The notes under the pieces were generated by a model, which was given only the letters and a program-made list of their open reading frames with translations, did no database searches and was not told where the DNA came from. Below are positions 13,719 to 27,750 of a stretch of DNA of 64,000 nucleotides, piece by piece; within the stretch, counting starts at the first letter, position 1; each line of letters opens with the position of its first letter. This DNA comes from an uncultured Actinomycetes bacterium. Its GTDB lineage: Bacteria > Actinomycetota > Actinomycetes > S36-B12 > UBA10799. Location: contig CAZVKB010000004.1 of assembly GCA_964627505.1 (NCBI GenBank), forward strand, positions 3,295-67,294, in the 5' to 3' direction. Made by a program: the position numbers and the translations under genes.

Positions 13719-14825
13719 TCAGCGGCCCGAGACTTCTGGCTCGGCACCGCGTCGCAGTGCGTCCTCGCACAGGGCATCGATGAGATCCGGGTAGCTGACG
13801 CCAGAAGCTTGCCACACAGCTGGGTACATCGAGGTGGAGGTGAATCCGGGGATGGTGTTGGGTTCGTTGAGCAGAACCTCACCGTTGGCGGTGAGGAAGG
13901 TATCCACACGAGCCATGCCTTCGCACCCCAACGCCGAATACGCACGCAGGGCAAGTCGCTGAATTCGCGCACGCTCGTCCGGGGTCAGCGCGGCTGGCAG
14001 GCTGATGTCAGTGGATCCATCGAGGTACTTGGCGGTGAAGTCGTAAAAACTGTGACCGCCGAGGACGGTGATTTCTGCGCATTCGCTGACGATCGGCCCG
14101 TCGGGGGTGGCTAACACGCCGCATTCGATTTCGCGCGCGTTCTGCACCGCAGCCTCAACGATCACGCGACGGTCATGGCTCCGGGCTGCTTCCACCGCCG
14201 CCGGAATTTCGCCGGAGTCCACGACTCGGCTAATCCCGACGCTGGAGCCGGCACGAGCGGGCTTGACAAACACCGGCAGCCCCAGCGCTGCCACCTGGGC
14301 CAGGATCTGCGCCCGGTCGGAGGTCCAGGCATGATCGGTGATACCTACGTAGGGCCCGATGGGGATCTCAGCGGCCAGCAGCGCTTCCTTGGTGCGAATT
14401 TTGTCCATGCACACCGCAGATGCGGCGACTCCCGAGCCCACACACGGCACGTCGGCAAGTTCGCAGACACCTTGGATGGCCCCGTCTTCACCGCCATATC
14501 CGTGCAGCACCGGGAACACCACATCAACCTTCAGGACCGTGCCATCGGCGAGCACGAGGCCGGCAATCGCAGGATCGGGTGGGAACATGACCCGCGTACC
14601 GCCGCTGGGCACCTCGGGCACCACTGCGTCTCGGATGGTGTAGAGCTCAGGCTGGTCCGGGGCCAGAGTCCAAGCGCCGTCGCGGGTGATGCCGATCGGC
14701 GTGACCTGCCATCGGTCGCGGTCGATCGCGGCCAGTACGTTTCCGGCAGAGACGCACGAGATGCCATGCTCGGAACTGCGTCCGCCGAAAATCACCGCGA
14801 GATGGTGCTTGGATGGGGCCACAGC
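13719..14825 (-). CDS. ddl: D-alanine--D-alanine ligase
   Basis: FGGRSSEHGISCVS N-terminus and ATP-grasp motifs. I used the GTG at 14825; the ORF stays open to 14870. Confidence 0.9.
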   Translation of the reverse strand, partial: AVAPSKHHLAVIFGGRSSEHGISCVSAGNVLAAIDRDRWQVTPIGITRDGAWTLAPDQPELYTIRDAVVPEVPSGGTRVMFPPDPAIAGLVLADGTVLKVDVVFPVLHGYGGEDGAIQGVCELADVPCVGSGVAASAVCMDKIRTKEALLAAEIPIGPYVGITDHAWTSDRAQILAQVAALGLPVFVKPARAGSSVGISRVVDSGEIPAAVEAARSHDRRVIVEAAVQNAREIECGVLATPDGPIVSECAEITVLGGHSFYDFTAKYLDGSTDISLPAALTPDERARIQRLALRAYSALGCEGMARVDTFLTANGEVLLNEPNTIPGFTSTSMYPAVWQASGVSYPDLIDALCEDALRRGAEPEVSGR

Positions 14826-14885
14826 ACGTGACCTTACCCGCTGATCAGCATGGCGCCGTGGCGCCACCACGAGAGGTGTCTTGCG

Positions 14886-22142: not shown

Positions 22143-24791
22143 CTAAGCAAGGCCCGCGCCGCCGTGGGTACGTCGGAATTCCACGAACCAGTCCCACAGT
22201 TCGTCCGGCGGCATGGGCCGGGCGTACAGATACCCCTGAACTGACGTGCACCGCCGACGCTGGAGATAGTCAGACTGTTCCGACGTCTCCACCCCCTCTG
22301 CCACGCACCGCATGTTCAGCTCCTCGGCCAGTGCGATGATCGAACGCACCACCGCCTCCCCTGCCGGATCCACGCCAATCTGCCACACGAAGGAACAATC
22401 GATCTTGATGGTGTCAATCGGGAACAGCCGCAAGTTGGCAAGGGAGGAATAGCCGGTTCCGAAATCGTCCAAGGCGAACCGCACCCCGCGATCATGCAGA
22501 ACCCGCATCACTTCAGCGCTCGCCTCCGGTCGCCGCATGGCCCAGTTCTCAGTGATCTCCAATTCGAGTCGATCACTGTTCCAGCCGTTTCGTTCGAGTT
22601 CCCGTACCACCACATCGGCGAATCCGGTCTGCCCGAAATGTCGGCCGCTGACATTAACGGCCAGGTCAATGTCACCCATGCCGCGGTGCCGCCACTCGGC
22701 CACCTGGTGCAGGGACTGCGCCAACACCCACTCGCCGATCGCCAAGATGCTGCCACCTGCTTCCGCGACTGGAATGAACTCGGCCGGGCTGGGATTACCC
22801 AGCTCCGAGTTTTGCCACCGCAACAGCACCTCCACCCCAGTCATGGTCATAGTCGCAATGTCTATTTGCGGTTGGTAGAACAACTGAAATTCGCCGCTGT
22901 CCAACGCTTGTCGAAGTCCCCGCACGATCGCCCCCCGACGCTCCTGCAGACTGAAGGTTTCCGAATCGAAAAAGCGCCACGAGTTGCGGCCCTCGTGCTT
23001 GACCTCGTACATGGCGGTGTCGCCGCTGCGCAGCAGTGCGTTCGGGCCGTTGCCATCACGCGGGTACAGCGCGATCCCGATGGAGACCGAAGTGTGAATG
23101 AGGTTGGACTCCACCACAAACGGCCGACGCATGGCCCCGGCCACTTGTTCGGCCACGCGCGCCGCCTTGGCTTCGTCCGCATTCGGGATCACCACCACAA
23201 ATTCGTCCCCCGACAGTCGCGCTACCAGATCTTCGCTCGCCAATTGTTCCCGCAAACGCTCGATCGTGGCAATCATGAGCAGATCGCCGGCCTCATGCCC
23301 AAGCGAGTCATTGACCCCTTTGAAATCATCGATATCGAGATAGAGCAACGCAAACTCGTGACCGGTGAGTTCGGAATCTTCCACTAGTTCCGAAATTCGC
23401 TCCAGTAGCAACCGCCGGGTGGGGGCGCCGGTCAACGGGTCGTAGAACGCCAGCCGCTCGATCTCTTCCTGATTGCGCTTTCGCTCCGATATGTCCAGCG
23501 CGAGCGCAGCGTAGTTGCGGACGAAACCGTCTTCGTCGAGCATCCGGATAATCCGGGTTTCCTGCGGGTAGATCTCCCCGTTTTTGCGCCGGTTCCACAT
23601 TTCGCCGGACCAGTAATTGTCGGCGTTCAGAGCGTGCCAAAGTTCCTTGTAGAACGACTTGGGGTGCCGGCCGGATTGTAATACGGAAGGCTGTACCCCG
23701 ATCAGTTCAGCTTGGGTGTACCCGGTCATGCTTTCGTAGGCCTGGTTCACCGACACGATCCGGTTGTTGCCATCGGTGATGATCACCCCTTCGGCACTGC
23801 GGGCCAACACCTCCGCAGCCAGATGCAGATCCAATTGGGCTTGCCGGACATCGGTAAGGTCAGTCGCGATTCCCCCGACCGCGAAGATCCGACCACTGGT
23901 GTCGCGCAGCGGAAATCGGGTAGTGGCGATCACTTGGGTGTCGCCATCGTGCTCCCGCATTTCCTCCAGCACGATTTGGCGGCCTGTGCGAATCACCTCC
24001 GCCTCGAGGTTGTGGGCCTCGATCACTTCTGGCAACGGGAGCCAGTCGTGGCGGGTGTGTCCCAGCACCTCCTCCATCGGGCGAGCCAGCTCAGCCAACA
24101 TGGCCGTGTTTGCCAGCAGGCACGTCCCTTGCGTGTCGAAGGCGTACATCGGCAGGGCGGAACTGTCGAGCATGGCTTGGAACAGCACTCGGATCCGATC
24201 GGACTCCAACTCGGCGGTGCGGTCCTCGAGCAGCACCAGCAGCCGATCTGCGTCAACCCGTTTGGAGTCCAGCACGGCGAAGAGCAACTCCACCGGGATT
24301 CGACGCGCCGACCGACGTGGCAATACATGCAGATCGGCTAGTCGGACCGCTTCCCCGATCGGAATGGTGCGAGTGGCCGCATAGAACACGGTGCGCGAAT
24401 CTTCGTCGAGCATGGTGAGCAGGGATTTGGGCGCGAATCTGTTATTCGCCGGAAGTCCGAGCAACTCCACGGCCATGCGATTGGCTTCCAGAATCCGAAA
24501 CCCGAGGTCAATCACGATCGCCGCGACCGGCATGTTTTCAAAGATGGTGGAAAATTCTGACAGTGCTCTTGCCGCCCGCGCCTGGGTCTCCAGTAGTTCC
24601 TGATTCTGGACCTCGAGTTCGCTCTGATACAGGCTGAGTTCCTGCACCAGCGTTTGCACGCGCGCGGCGGCGTCGGCGTCGTGGAGCAGTTCGGGACTGT
24701 CTTGCGTTAATTGTGTGACTGCCCGGGCCCGGTCCCGCAGGTAGGAGAGGCGCTCGTGACGTTCCTGTTCGGGCTCTCCGTGGTCATTCAT
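22143..24791 (-). CDS. Multi-PAS GGDEF-EAL protein (diguanylate cyclase / c-di-GMP phosphodiesterase)
   Basis: N-terminal coiled coil and at least three PAS-like segments. GGDEF domain with SGDEF. EAL domain with EVL, DDFGTGYSS, KIDCSF and EGVET. The start overlaps the upstream gene by 8 nt. Confidence 0.9.
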   Translation of the reverse strand: MNDHGEPEQERHERLSYLRDRARAVTQLTQDSPELLHDADAAARVQTLVQELSLYQSELEVQNQELLETQARAARALSEFSTIFENMPVAAIVIDLGFRILEANRMAVELLGLPANNRFAPKSLLTMLDEDSRTVFYAATRTIPIGEAVRLADLHVLPRRSARRIPVELLFAVLDSKRVDADRLLVLLEDRTAELESDRIRVLFQAMLDSSALPMYAFDTQGTCLLANTAMLAELARPMEEVLGHTRHDWLPLPEVIEAHNLEAEVIRTGRQIVLEEMREHDGDTQVIATTRFPLRDTSGRIFAVGGIATDLTDVRQAQLDLHLAAEVLARSAEGVIITDGNNRIVSVNQAYESMTGYTQAELIGVQPSVLQSGRHPKSFYKELWHALNADNYWSGEMWNRRKNGEIYPQETRIIRMLDEDGFVRNYAALALDISERKRNQEEIERLAFYDPLTGAPTRRLLLERISELVEDSELTGHEFALLYLDIDDFKGVNDSLGHEAGDLLMIATIERLREQLASEDLVARLSGDEFVVVIPNADEAKAARVAEQVAGAMRRPFVVESNLIHTSVSIGIALYPRDGNGPNALLRSGDTAMYEVKHEGRNSWRFFDSETFSLQERRGAIVRGLRQALDSGEFQLFYQPQIDIATMTMTGVEVLLRWQNSELGNPSPAEFIPVAEAGGSILAIGEWVLAQSLHQVAEWRHRGMGDIDLAVNVSGRHFGQTGFADVVVRELERNGWNSDRLELEITENWAMRRPEASAEVMRVLHDRGVRFALDDFGTGYSSLANLRLFPIDTIKIDCSFVWQIGVDPAGEAVVRSIIALAEELNMRCVAEGVETSEQSDYLQRRRCTSVQGYLYARPMPPDELWDWFVEFRRTHGGAGLA

Positions 24792-27750
24792 GGTGTGTGG
24801 CCGCCTGTCGCCAGGGAGTGACGTTCACATGGCTGACGACCGCCCCGAAGCTGCCATCCATAATCCTCGAAACATTCATGACAAACCACCGCTGCTCGGT
24901 CGGTGAATGGCAGGGGTATTCCATCGAGAACGTCGCCTCGGTCCCCTCCAGCACATGCCGCAGGCCGACCACAGCTTCGTTTGCGGAATCCTCATCCGGC
25001 AGGCCGCCCATGCAGGCGTCGAAGTAGTTCGCCCCCGGGCCGGAGTGGATCATTGCCGGATCTCCGTTGGCGCGAGCAAACCGTACCCAGGCTGCGTTCA
25101 CCATCCGAATGGTGCCGTCGACGTCAACCACTGCCACGTGTTCTGGCAGTGCATCGATGACGGCTTGCAGGCGGCGGAGGTCGTGGAAGGCCGTGAAGTC
25201 GACAAACGTCGCCACGGCGCCTCGCACCGTTGGCGAACCCACTTGGTACGGCAGGATTCGTACCAAATAGGTGTGCCGACCGTCGAGTGAGCGCACTTCG
25301 CGCTCGGTCATACGCTCCTGGGTCATAGTGCTTTCCATGTCCACGATCAAATCGGGGTAATCCATGGAGTGCGCAAAGTCATCGAGCCGACGACCGATAT
25401 CGGAGTCCCGCAGCCGGAAAATCAAAGCTGCATCAGGGGAGAACCTCGTCAACACCAAGTTTTCGTCCACAAACACGGTGGCCACCCCCGCGGCTTTCGC
25501 CATGCTGTCGAGGTCGGCGTTCATGCGGTTGAGCACGAGTACCTTTTCCTGGTACTCCACATTGACCGTGTTGAGTTCTTCATTGAGGCTCTGCAGTTCT
25601 TCGTTGGAACTCTGCATCTCCTCGTTGGACGCCATCAGTTCCTCATTGGTGGCCTGCAGTTCCTCATTGGCCGTTTCCAACGCCTCGATGGTGGATTGCA
25701 GACTTTCCCGTGTGGCCATCAACTCACGTTCGAGGATGCTGATCCGCCGCACAGTCTCTTCATCGACATCAACCGAGCCGGCTTCCCCGTCGGTTGATAC
25801 ATCACCTGCGTTCTCGAAGCACAGCAGCGTGAACCGCTCCTCCTCGGGTTGCCGCAACGGATGCGCAGACAACCGCAGATGTTGCGTACTGCCGTCGAGA
25901 GCCGACACCTGCACATGGTCGGAGATGATCGCAACGTTGTCGCGATTCGATTTGTGCAGCAATGCTGAGGCGACCGGCACCAACGGCCCTGGCAACAACC
26001 GGTTGACCATCAGACTGGCCGACCCAGCACTCAAACGTACGAAGGGTGACACGTCGCCGAAGACATGCACCACCTCATGGTTGGCATTGACCAAAATCGC
26101 CGGGGGCGCGAACTCCCGCAACAGCGCCAAAGTCCCGGCCTCCAAGAGATCCGGATCGACGTGAGTCGGCGGCTGCGGGCGGGAGACTGAGCGCACCACC
26201 GAGGAACGACCCGCGGGCATGGGACCGGGCATCATCCGTTCCACAGAAAGCGGACGGGTTTTGCCCACCTTTTGAAAAATCTTGTGCCGAGAACTCACCA
26301 CCCGCAAACCTTCGGTGCCTGAGGACAGTGATTCGCTGGATCCCAAGAAGAGGTAGCCACCGGGCCGGATGGCATATTCCAGTGACCGCAGCGCGCGTTC
26401 CTGGGCTGACAATTTGAAGTAGATCAGGGTATTGCGGCACAGCACCAGATCCATGTTGGTGAAGGGTGGATCGGACAGCAGGTTGTGCCGTGCCACCACC
26501 ACGGACTGCCGCAGTTCGTTGGTCACCACAAATGAGTTGCCCTGTTTGATGAAGAAGTGCTCCAAGCGGTCGCGGTTGATCTCCACACTGGTGGATTCGG
26601 GGTACTGGCCGGCTCCGGCGCTTTCCACGCACCGCTGATCGACATCGGTAGCAAAAATTTTCAACGGCGGCCAGGTGCCGGCGCGCTGAAACGCTTCCAT
26701 GAAAAGGATCCCCAGGGAATAGGCTTCCTCCCCAGTGGCGGTGCCGGCCACCCACGCCCGAATCACTTCCCCACCTTTTTTGTTCGCCATGATGTCGGGG
26801 ATGACGACTTCGGCCAACAGGTCAAAAGCCTCGGCATCTCGGAAGAAACTCGTAACTGCGATCAACATCTCTTGCCGCAGTGTCAAAGCTTCGGAACGGT
26901 CGTTGAGCAGCAGTCGGTAGTAAGCGTCGAGGTCAGGGACGTGCCGCACCTGCATCCGTCGATCGATCCGGCGCAGAATGGTCGCCGGCTTGTAGTCCCG
27001 GAAGTCGATCCCACCCACTTCGAACAGCAGGGCCAGGATCGCTTCGAGCGCCTCATCCGCCGACAGGTGCGCCATGGACACCGGCACATTGCTGATCTCG
27101 GAGGGCGCAGTAAACGGCTCGTGGCGCATGTGCGCCATGATGCGGCCGGGCAGATCCTCCGCCGGCAGCACAGCATCCACCACACCGGTGCTGATCGCGC
27201 TTCTGGGCATGCCGTCGAACTTCGCCGATTCCGGCTCCTGCACACACACAAAGCCATCGGCGGCATTGATCGTCACCGTGCCCCGTGTGCCATCGGTGCC
27301 GGTGCCCGAGAGCACCACGCCAATCGCCTTCGATCGATACGTCTCAGCCAAGGACGCGAAAAAGATGTCGATCGGCAAGGTGAGTCCGTGCGGGCTCTTT
27401 GGGGTCAGGTGCAGATGCCCCTGACTGGCGTGCATGACCGCACCAGGAGGTATCAAATAGACGTGGCCAGGTTCGATGCGCATGTCATCCTCAACCACCA
27501 CCACAGGCATGCTGGTGTGGCGGGACAAAAGGTTGTTCATGATCGATTTGTGGTCTGGCGACAGGTGCTGGATCACCACGAAAGCCGCACCGCTATCAGA
27601 TGGACACGAGTCGAAGAAACGCTCCAGAGCGTCCAGCCCGCCCGCTGAGGCGCCGATGGCAACCACATAGCCATCACCGATTGCGGTTGGGGGGTGCCCG
27701 ACGACAGCCGATGGCTGCCCAGCCCCGACCAGGGGCGCCACCTCGGCCAT
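24784..27750 (-). CDS. CheB methylesterase - CheR methyltransferase fusion protein with coiled-coil and PAS domains; no kinase domain
   Basis: CheB-type AIGASAGGLDAL...VIQHL. CheR-type IRAWVAGTATGEEAYS. NEEL heptad coiled coil and C-terminal PAS-like segments (LPEHVAVVDVDGTIRMVNAAW). Confidence 0.85.
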   Translation of the reverse strand: MAEVAPLVGAGQPSAVVGHPPTAIGDGYVVAIGASAGGLDALERFFDSCPSDSGAAFVVIQHLSPDHKSIMNNLLSRHTSMPVVVVEDDMRIEPGHVYLIPPGAVMHASQGHLHLTPKSPHGLTLPIDIFFASLAETYRSKAIGVVLSGTGTDGTRGTVTINAADGFVCVQEPESAKFDGMPRSAISTGVVDAVLPAEDLPGRIMAHMRHEPFTAPSEISNVPVSMAHLSADEALEAILALLFEVGGIDFRDYKPATILRRIDRRMQVRHVPDLDAYYRLLLNDRSEALTLRQEMLIAVTSFFRDAEAFDLLAEVVIPDIMANKKGGEVIRAWVAGTATGEEAYSLGILFMEAFQRAGTWPPLKIFATDVDQRCVESAGAGQYPESTSVEINRDRLEHFFIKQGNSFVVTNELRQSVVVARHNLLSDPPFTNMDLVLCRNTLIYFKLSAQERALRSLEYAIRPGGYLFLGSSESLSSGTEGLRVVSSRHKIFQKVGKTRPLSVERMMPGPMPAGRSSVVRSVSRPQPPTHVDPDLLEAGTLALLREFAPPAILVNANHEVVHVFGDVSPFVRLSAGSASLMVNRLLPGPLVPVASALLHKSNRDNVAIISDHVQVSALDGSTQHLRLSAHPLRQPEEERFTLLCFENAGDVSTDGEAGSVDVDEETVRRISILERELMATRESLQSTIEALETANEELQATNEELMASNEEMQSSNEELQSLNEELNTVNVEYQEKVLVLNRMNADLDSMAKAAGVATVFVDENLVLTRFSPDAALIFRLRDSDIGRRLDDFAHSMDYPDLIVDMESTMTQERMTEREVRSLDGRHTYLVRILPYQVGSPTVRGAVATFVDFTAFHDLRRLQAVIDALPEHVAVVDVDGTIRMVNAAWVRFARANGDPAMIHSGPGANYFDACMGGLPDEDSANEAVVGLRHVLEGTEATFSMEYPCHSPTEQRWFVMNVSRIMDGSFGAVVSHVNVTPWRQAATHHE
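25575..25679 (-). repeat. Five tandem 21-bp units inside the CheB-CheR gene, encoding xNEELxx heptads
   Basis: Plus-strand units start at 25575, 25596, 25617, 25638 and 25659 (gttcttcattg / gttcttcgttg / tctcctcgttg / gttcctcattg / gttcctcattg). They translate to ANEELQA TNEELMA SNEEMQS SNEELQS LNEELNT. Confidence 0.8.

Follow-up and report, generated by a model that had tools for sequence, protein, structure and literature searches.

Conserved NEEL heptads in a CheB–CheR–PAS fusion protein suggest a methylation switch outside chemotaxis

In textbook accounts, sensory adaptation works through the reversible methylation of glutamate residues, carried out by CheR and CheB, and this mechanism has been established almost only for chemoreceptors. 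In Myxococcus xanthus, FrzCD is methylated at E168, E175 and E182, seven residues apart (PMC2535941), and FrzF and other CheR–TPR proteins serve pathways outside flagellar chemotaxis (PMC2535941, PMC3447774). CheR is also reported to methylate PhoP, a non-chemoreceptor protein of Salmonella, at E8/D9 and E107/E108 (PMC8546571). Here, we analyzed a stretch of contig CAZVKB010000004.1 from an uncultured Actinomycetes bacterium, hereafter the window (64 kb; 64,000 nucleotides, nt), which carries a gene for a CheB–CheR–PAS fusion protein of 988 amino acids (aa). Between two of its sensor domains, the protein contains a long predicted helix with five tandem heptads of the form NEEL (the NEEL block). 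Coordinates throughout are positions in the window.

The gene belongs to an annotated family that is already known, and the NEEL repeat is a hallmark of that family. Hundreds of homologs of the 988-aa fusion are named 'CheB/CheR fusion protein' ('two-component system, chemotaxis family') in their sources, and the domain order CheB_methylest–CheR_N–CheR–helix–PAS_10 is shared with them. A search of the open-access literature found no functional study of the family, which is no proof of absence, and no published methylation test of the NEEL helix. The family was mentioned only in passing: RC1_3878 of Rhodospirillum centenum is termed a 'CheB-CheR hybrid', and cheBR fusions have been counted in Geobacter. 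No description was found there of the constraint on the glutamate pairs, of the fixed count of five heptads or of the pairing with a NEEL-tagged PAS effector, all of which are reported below.

Our leading interpretation, to which we give slightly less than an even chance, is that the NEEL stripe is a built-in methyl-accepting surface in a two-gene adaptation module outside chemotaxis. We favor a built-in acceptor because nothing else in the protein is as conserved as the block, the second glutamate of each pair has the lowest entropy of all heptad positions, the shape of the sites is chemoreceptor-like and the number of heptads is fixed. A methyl-accepting role had been proposed for these heptads in a sequence-only reading of the same DNA; taken as a whole, that proposal is partly supported by the present analysis.

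The NEEL block and its conservation

The helix and its repeats are encoded as follows.
25492..25767, minus strand: unbroken predicted helix, aa 662-753, 92 residues (AlphaFold2; predicted local distance difference test, pLDDT, about 77-89)
25567..25671, minus strand: five NEEL heptads, aa 694-728, A694-T728 (translation)
25543..25563, minus strand: sixth, degenerate heptad NVEYQEK, aa 730-736 (alignment columns and census of positions b and c)

The helix joins a PAS-like domain to PAS_10 and contains 22 acidic and 7 basic residues. No entry in Pfam, NCBIfam or the PDB covers it. Searched alone against family libraries, it matched generic coiled-coil families only, all below their cut-offs, and the PDB yielded no relative of either the NEEL helix or PAS_10. 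The block translates as ANEELQATNEELMASNEEMQSSNEELQSLNEELNT, that is, as the heptads ANEELQA, TNEELMA, SNEEMQS, SNEELQS and LNEELNT. In the heptad register, a is Asn, b and c are Glu, d is Leu or Met, e is variable, f is Ala or Ser, and g is Thr, Ser or Leu. The 35 residues include 10 Glu and no Lys or Arg, and the heptads are candidate methyl-accepting sites. The presence of five tandem NEEL heptads in the CheB–CheR gene, noted in the sequence-only reading, was confirmed by translation and by Tandem Repeats Finder (25574-25670, period 21, 4.6 copies, 72% matches, score 87). The position given there, 25575-25679, refers to the same feature but is shifted by 8 nt and covers L691-L726; the exact interval is 25567-25671 on the minus strand.

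At the DNA level, identity among the five 21-nt units is 79% per column. Synonymous codon differences (AAT/AAC, GAG/GAA, CTG/CTC) separate the units, which means that selection on the protein, not a recent duplication of DNA, maintains the repeat. Five in-phase Glu-Glu (EE) pairs arose in none of 20000 protein shuffles. The sixth heptad, which reads NAEF or NVEY across the family, retains Asn at a (N730 in 150/150 sequences) and the second Glu at c (E732 in 147/150).

Conservation was measured as column entropy in a main alignment of 150 diverse cluster representatives with 37-59% identity. The NEEL block has the lowest mean entropy in the protein and is better conserved than both active-site domains.
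Mean column entropy (bit): NEEL block 0.46; CheB 1.58; CheR 1.83; PAS_10 2.25
Among 118 closer homologs, the entropy of the block falls to 0.05-0.09 bit, and the tool used to find related loci picked NEELQATN and QSSNEELQ as the best-conserved peptides. The distribution over the heptad positions, compared with the flanks of the same helix, is given below in bits.
Position a (Asn): NEEL block 0.05; helix flanks 0.9-1.8
Position b (Glu): NEEL block 0.10; helix flanks 1.9-2.6
Position c (Glu): NEEL block 0.03; helix flanks 0.7-1.2
Position d (Leu): NEEL block 0.24; helix flanks 0.8-1.4
Position e: NEEL block 1.19; helix flanks 1.9-2.0
Position f (Ala/Ser): NEEL block 0.63; helix flanks 2.1-2.5
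Position g: NEEL block 0.79; helix flanks 1.1-1.15

Position c, the second Glu of the pair, is thus the most conserved of all seven. The sequence-only reading had suggested comparing the EE pairs with the other heptad positions across homologs, and the pairs proved to be preferentially conserved (b 0.10 and c 0.03 bit), level with Asn and ahead of Leu and of positions e, f and g. The flanks serve as an internal control, in which b, e and f vary as they do in an ordinary coiled coil. This comparison reveals strong selection acting specifically on the outward-facing Glu pair. The block also departs from ordinary coiled coils in its core: whereas position a of a dimeric coiled coil is typically hydrophobic, here it is Asn, (nearly) invariant in every column, with Leu or Met at d, and the outer b, c and f positions, which are free to vary in an ordinary coiled-coil linker, are constrained. 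A census of 1100 heptads, taken from 221 distinct blocks, gave Glu at c in 1093 and Ser, Ala or Thr at f in 1052.

The copy number is similarly constrained. The sequence-only reading had named the NEEL coiled coil as a recurrent feature of the fusion family, and the block is present in 149 of the 150 representatives, with exactly five uninterrupted heptads in 145. Two representatives, P0228 and P0144, are unusual: one has eight consecutive NEEL heptads, and one (829 aa) has a degenerate block, NFDELQSINEELMATNAELQ..., with no intact run of two heptads. Some fusion subfamilies in metagenome loci (L085-L204) have three (NEELQSTNEELQSTNEELTTS) or four (NEELKSTNEELQSTNEELQSTNEELETS) uninterrupted heptads; the partner proteins of these subfamilies, introduced below, are often small (~183-190 aa) and consist of a helix and one PAS domain only. 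The two NEEL peptides were matched in at least 593 species-level genomes, and the fusion family, which is very large, comprises thousands of protein clusters in Proteobacteria, Planctomycetota, Chloroflexota, Bacillota, Actinomycetota and other phyla; many of the host lineages are motile.

Catalytic domains and the coupled partner gene

The remaining parts of the fusion gene are listed here.
24784..27750, minus strand: CheB–CheR–PAS fusion gene, 988 aa (open reading frame, ORF, list; translation; Pfam)
27139..27663, minus strand: CheB_methylest, aa 30-204 (Pfam, E=3e-57)
26281..27051, minus strand: CheR_N, aa 234-284, and S-adenosylmethionine-dependent CheR, aa 299-490 (Pfam)
25810..26154, minus strand: PAS-like domain, aa 533-647 (AlphaFold2 secondary structure and pLDDT)
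25192..25512, minus strand: PAS_10, aa 747-853, entered straight from the long helix (Pfam, E=1e-21; AlphaFold2)
24838..25155, minus strand: C-terminal PAS_4, aa 866-971 (Pfam, E=2e-10)

Judged from their sequences, both enzymes look active, since no variation was seen in the triad of CheB, in the motifs of CheR or in the basic helix of CheR_N. In the CheB domain, S35, H62 and D153 align with Ser164, His190 and Asp286 of Salmonella CheB (PDB 1a2o) and do not vary among 65 homologs. The whole of the CheR domain can be aligned with the CheR structures 5ftw, 1af7 and 1bc5; in the same 65 homologs, the basic residues R260, R261, R264 and R265 of CheR_N and the CheR motifs TGEE, ATD and CRN are likewise invariant. 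Against the NCBIfam models of true chemotaxis CheB and CheR, the fusion scores far below the cut-offs (123 versus 342 bits and 103 versus 435 bits, respectively), and NCBIfam holds no model covering the CheB–CheR fusion. Pfam gave no Response_reg match, that is, no receiver domain, in the 988-aa protein.

Pfam returned no match to the PAS-like domain at 533-647, even when hits with E up to 10 were admitted; of all structured parts of the fusion, this domain is the least conserved (2.74 bit per column). In the AlphaFold2 model, a disordered tether lies on either side of it (503-530 and 651-662); if the prediction is correct, these tethers could allow the CheB and CheR domains to reach the helix. 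The model has a mean pLDDT of 80.9 and a predicted template modeling score (pTM) of 0.39, so that domain placement and packing are unreliable. Two long opposite-strand ORFs, 25364-26164 and 25369-25797 on the plus strand, overlap the region encoding the helix; in DNA with 63.5% G+C, they are most likely spurious.

Directly downstream lies a second gene, here termed the partner, with the following features.
22143..24791, minus strand: partner gene, 882 aa, with an N-terminal helix, three PAS domains, GGDEF and EAL (ORF list, Pfam, NCBIfam)
24537..24677, minus strand: long N-terminal helix of the partner, aa 39-85, 47 residues, running into the first PAS (AlphaFold2, pLDDT 85-95)
24582..24638, minus strand: partner motif LSLYQSELEVQNQELLETQ, aa 52-70 (translation)

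The partner gene overlaps the stop codon of the fusion by 8 nt and is translationally coupled to it, and the order of fusion then partner recurs on independent metagenome contigs. Its motif contains ELEVQNQEL, one NEEL-like heptad, with Q56, N63 and Q70 at a, the glutamates E58 and E65 at c, and the leucines L59 and L66 at d. In register, the partner helix thus reproduces the NEEL helix in short form. The family consensus of the partner reads L.HEL.VHQIELEMQN(E/D/Q)ELR.AQ. Among 36 sequences, the first residue of the partner's pair is E in 17, D in 12 and Q in 5, and the second is E in 29 and Q in 4 (E or Q in 33/36); in a wider alignment, this second residue is at least 90% conserved. In each of the two proteins, 32 residues separate the conserved Asn from the Asp at the end of the first PAS strand motif (N63-D95 in the partner, N730-D762 in the fusion), and the helix-plus-PAS units of the two look like the same design. 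The GGDEF domain of the partner has a degenerate active-site motif, SGDEF, and EAL reads EVL with the other conserved EAL motifs kept. The best NCBIfam match, below its threshold, is a phosphodiesterase (DibA). To judge from these motifs, the partner is probably a cyclic di-GMP (c-di-GMP) phosphodiesterase rather than a cyclase.

The pairing of the two genes holds in both directions. In a forward test on 80 related genome loci, 48 had an adjacent downstream gene on the same strand, and 35 of these genes contain the motif pattern [QERHK].E[LMIV]..QN..L, compared with 3 of 439 other ORFs, all three of them close by. An apparent loss of the partner in one contig (L001) was traced to a scaffold gap and rejected. 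In the reverse test, metagenomes were scanned for DNA encoding ELEMQNEEL, and matches with at least 1500 nt upstream were kept; 35 of 66 motif instances lie directly after a NEEL-repeat gene. The motif is nearly always located around residue 50 of its protein. All complete NEEL-repeat ORFs from the metagenomes, which have 3, 4 or 5 heptads, match simple CheB and CheR patterns, except for one (L086) that missed the CheR pattern. When the partner motif was used for a profile search, no match was longer than 105 aa; these fragments did not reveal the output domains of the matching proteins.

The fusion gene usually lies outside chemotaxis clusters, and the neighbor conserved beside it encodes a PAS effector instead of a Che protein. 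Chemoreceptor signature motifs occur within 6 kb in 5 of the 80 loci (L008, L012, L013, L027 and L071), and in three of these, the chemoreceptor gene lies upstream on the same strand; a minority of the family may thus be linked to chemoreceptors. No chemoreceptor signature was found within the 64-kb window.

Two loci have a second CheB-like or CheB–CheR-like gene (...GIGASAGGL...) directly downstream of the fusion (L053, 9989-10600; L066, 9267-11753). These second copies are tandem paralogs, and in L066, the NEEL-tagged partner follows the second copy. The closest relatives of the fusion protein described here (60-69% identity) are mostly proteobacterial or without a name. Elsewhere in the window, a D-Ala–D-Ala ligase (13719-14870, minus strand) has its nearest named relatives in uncultured Actinobacteria and Nanopelagicales, at ~67-68% identity; on this evidence, an uncultured actinobacterium is the probable source of the window.

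Methyl-accepting surface, docking element or linker

That two units fit EExxA(S/T), as the sequence-only reading had it, is correct: the strict pattern EExxA[ST] occurs twice, as EELQAT at 696 and EELMAS at 703, whereas shuffled sequences contain it 0.064 times on average and reach two in 40 of 20000 cases. Of the remaining units, described there as near matches, EEMQSS (710) fits a relaxed form and raises the total to three of five units; the last two end in Leu or Val. The family consensus of the units is EELQAT, EELLAS, EELQST, EELQSV and EELYTV; for comparison, the heptads of Tsr are EQQASAL, EETAASM and EQLTATV. As in chemoreceptors, the candidate sites are spaced seven residues apart along one face of the helix throughout the five heptads.

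Several points weigh against this reading. The strict pattern is found in only 2 of 5 units, and every unit misses the first position of the wider ten-residue chemoreceptor consensus. Pfam detected no MCPsignal homology of the helix even at E up to 10, and AlphaFold2 predicts a single long helix between PAS domains instead of the antiparallel four-helix bundle in which chemoreceptor sites lie. Gln, a common encoded form in chemoreceptors, replaces the second Glu just 1-2 times: among 1500 cells in the 150 representatives, Glu is replaced in 12, by Gln in 8 and at the first position in 6 of these 8, and in the 1100 heptads Gln stands at c in a single case and at b in seven. The invariant Asn at a is foreign to chemoreceptor methylation helices and needs its own structural explanation. 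Furthermore, extreme conservation on all faces fits a surface binding several partners equally well, and with no receiver on CheB, methylation and demethylation of one helix could become a futile cycle unless the conformation of the substrate exerts control. Real methylation sites tolerate departures from the Escherichia coli consensus (PMC2535941). In view of the points against it, the block is not filed as a chemoreceptor methylation helix, yet it may work like one.

From the anatomy, the conservation, the intact catalytic motifs and the operon pairing, all of which are observed, we infer the remaining steps of a possible mechanism. The NEEL heptads would form the functional core of the 92-residue inter-PAS helix, which would dimerize through a polar seam with Asn at each a and Leu at d. 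The stripe of Glu-Glu pairs, with its small flanking residues, would be displayed as the protein's own methyl-accepting surface. CheR, on its flexible linkers, would methylate the second Glu of the pairs, and CheB would remove the methyl groups. As the sites are methylated stepwise, each chain could lose as many as five or six charges, which could then alter the stability or register of a weak coiled coil, and the flanking PAS sensors would bias which enzyme wins, so that the methylation level acts as a graded memory of the signal. This state might be passed to the coupled PAS–GGDEF–EAL partner, whose N-terminal helix would either be methylated as well or pack on the NEEL helix. The sequence-only reading had not taken in this partner, whose one-heptad motif makes trans-methylation and helix docking possible in place of self-modification alone.

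Extended to the family, this mechanism would amount to a widespread two-gene form of sensory adaptation that dispenses with chemoreceptors, CheA and CheW, in which the fusion contributes five or six Glu sites and the partner one, and the methylation forms a graded, reversible memory; we regard this as possible but somewhat less likely than not. With similar reserve, the outputs of the partners in such a system may be a c-di-GMP enzyme, a histidine kinase or a bare PAS domain. If the fusion's own helix and that of its partner are indeed substrates, methylation memory would extend to c-di-GMP turnover and histidine-kinase signaling, and the system would offer a compact, soluble model for coiled-coil switching by stepwise charge neutralization. 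The candidate sites, catalytic residues and partner are now defined well enough for direct experiment.

The main rival explanation, which we consider less likely than the leading one, is that the block is a docking or assembly element, in which the Asn seam and acidic stripe pair with the partner helix and the partner or another protein is the true substrate. Buried Asn layers, such as Asn16 of GCN4, fix the choice of partner and the register in coiled coils, and the partner helix repeats the arrangement of a polar a, Glu at c and Leu at d with Gln-Asn-Gln a-layers, at the same 32-residue distance from Asn to PAS. The operon pairing (35/48 forward, 35/66 reverse) points the same way, and the pair in the partner, with E or Q as its second residue in 33/36 and often Asp as its first, would suit an acceptor residue in that protein. 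However, approximately half of the 80 loci show no adjacent partner, yet the block is present in 149/150 representatives, and among these 150, no natural fusion of the CheB–CheR protein with its partner was found. Docking alone also leaves unexplained the conserved small residues at f and the absence of basic residues over five repeats. Docking and self-methylation can both be true, as the two are compatible.

Two further explanations are each improbable. In the first, the NEEL helix is a pseudo-substrate that blocks the active sites of CheR, CheB or both until PAS domains release it, and the real substrates are elsewhere. Its likeness to the substrate consensus and its tethering to the enzymes would suit such a role, and a CheB without a receiver domain needs some other control. 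Nevertheless, five to six identical sites exceed what an inhibitor needs, a Glu offered to an active CheR would be expected to become methylated anyway, and the sites have no feature that sets them apart from true acceptors. In the second, which is equally improbable, ordinary chemoreceptors are the targets of the fusion, which supplies accessory CheR and CheB activities, and the NEEL helix serves only as a structurally conserved dimerizing linker. The alignment of the catalytic domains with chemotaxis CheB and CheR, the chemoreceptor genes within 6 kb in 5/80 loci and the motility of many host lineages are consistent with this; the scores far under the NCBI cut-offs for true CheB and CheR, the lack of a chemoreceptor signature in the 64-kb window and the conserved PAS effector in place of a neighboring che gene are not. 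Moreover, the rate of 5/80 shows no obvious enrichment when judged informally against the usual background density, and a structural linker would not keep the outer b and c positions above core conservation, in contrast to its own flanks. Finally, a chance low-complexity or unstable DNA tandem repeat without specific function, which the 21-nt array found by Tandem Repeats Finder might suggest, has a negligible probability and is excluded by the conservation data, given near-invariance across phyla and a copy number fixed at five, and by the in-phase EE pairs in 0/20000 shuffles and the synonymous differences between units.

Comparison with known systems

The closest likeness of the NEEL block is to methylation helix 1 of E. 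coli Tsr and Tar and of FrzCD, which it resembles in its acidic pairs, in the small residues two positions on, in the seven-residue spacing and in the acidic character of the helix. In both, conservation within the pair is higher at the second residue, and CheR and CheB are the cognate enzymes. Unlike in these receptors, core position a is Asn here, where chemoreceptors have a hydrophobic or small residue, and there is no MCPsignal homology. A single helix is predicted, Gln is hardly encoded at the candidate acceptor, and the enzymes are part of the same polypeptide.

FrzF and the CheR–TPR proteins are similar to the fusion in that their CheR part is linked to a further domain, which steers or limits the choice of sites to be modified. 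Their genes lie in che-like clusters that also encode CheA, CheW and a chemoreceptor, whereas here the neighbor is a PAS effector, and the fusion adds CheB, PAS sensors and the NEEL helix. PhoP provides a reported precedent for the action of CheR on a non-receptor protein at consecutive acidic residues. It is a moonlighting target of the chemotaxis CheR and has neither a repeated heptad array nor a fused enzyme.

The helix can also be compared with the signaling-helix linkers of PAS proteins, with which it shares a long helix running into the PAS core and a predicted parallel dimer. Asn at position a of a coiled coil, as in GCN4, both fixes the register and weakens the coil. In contrast to PAS linkers and GCN4, the NEEL helix combines six or seven consecutive Asn layers with invariant outer Glu pairs.

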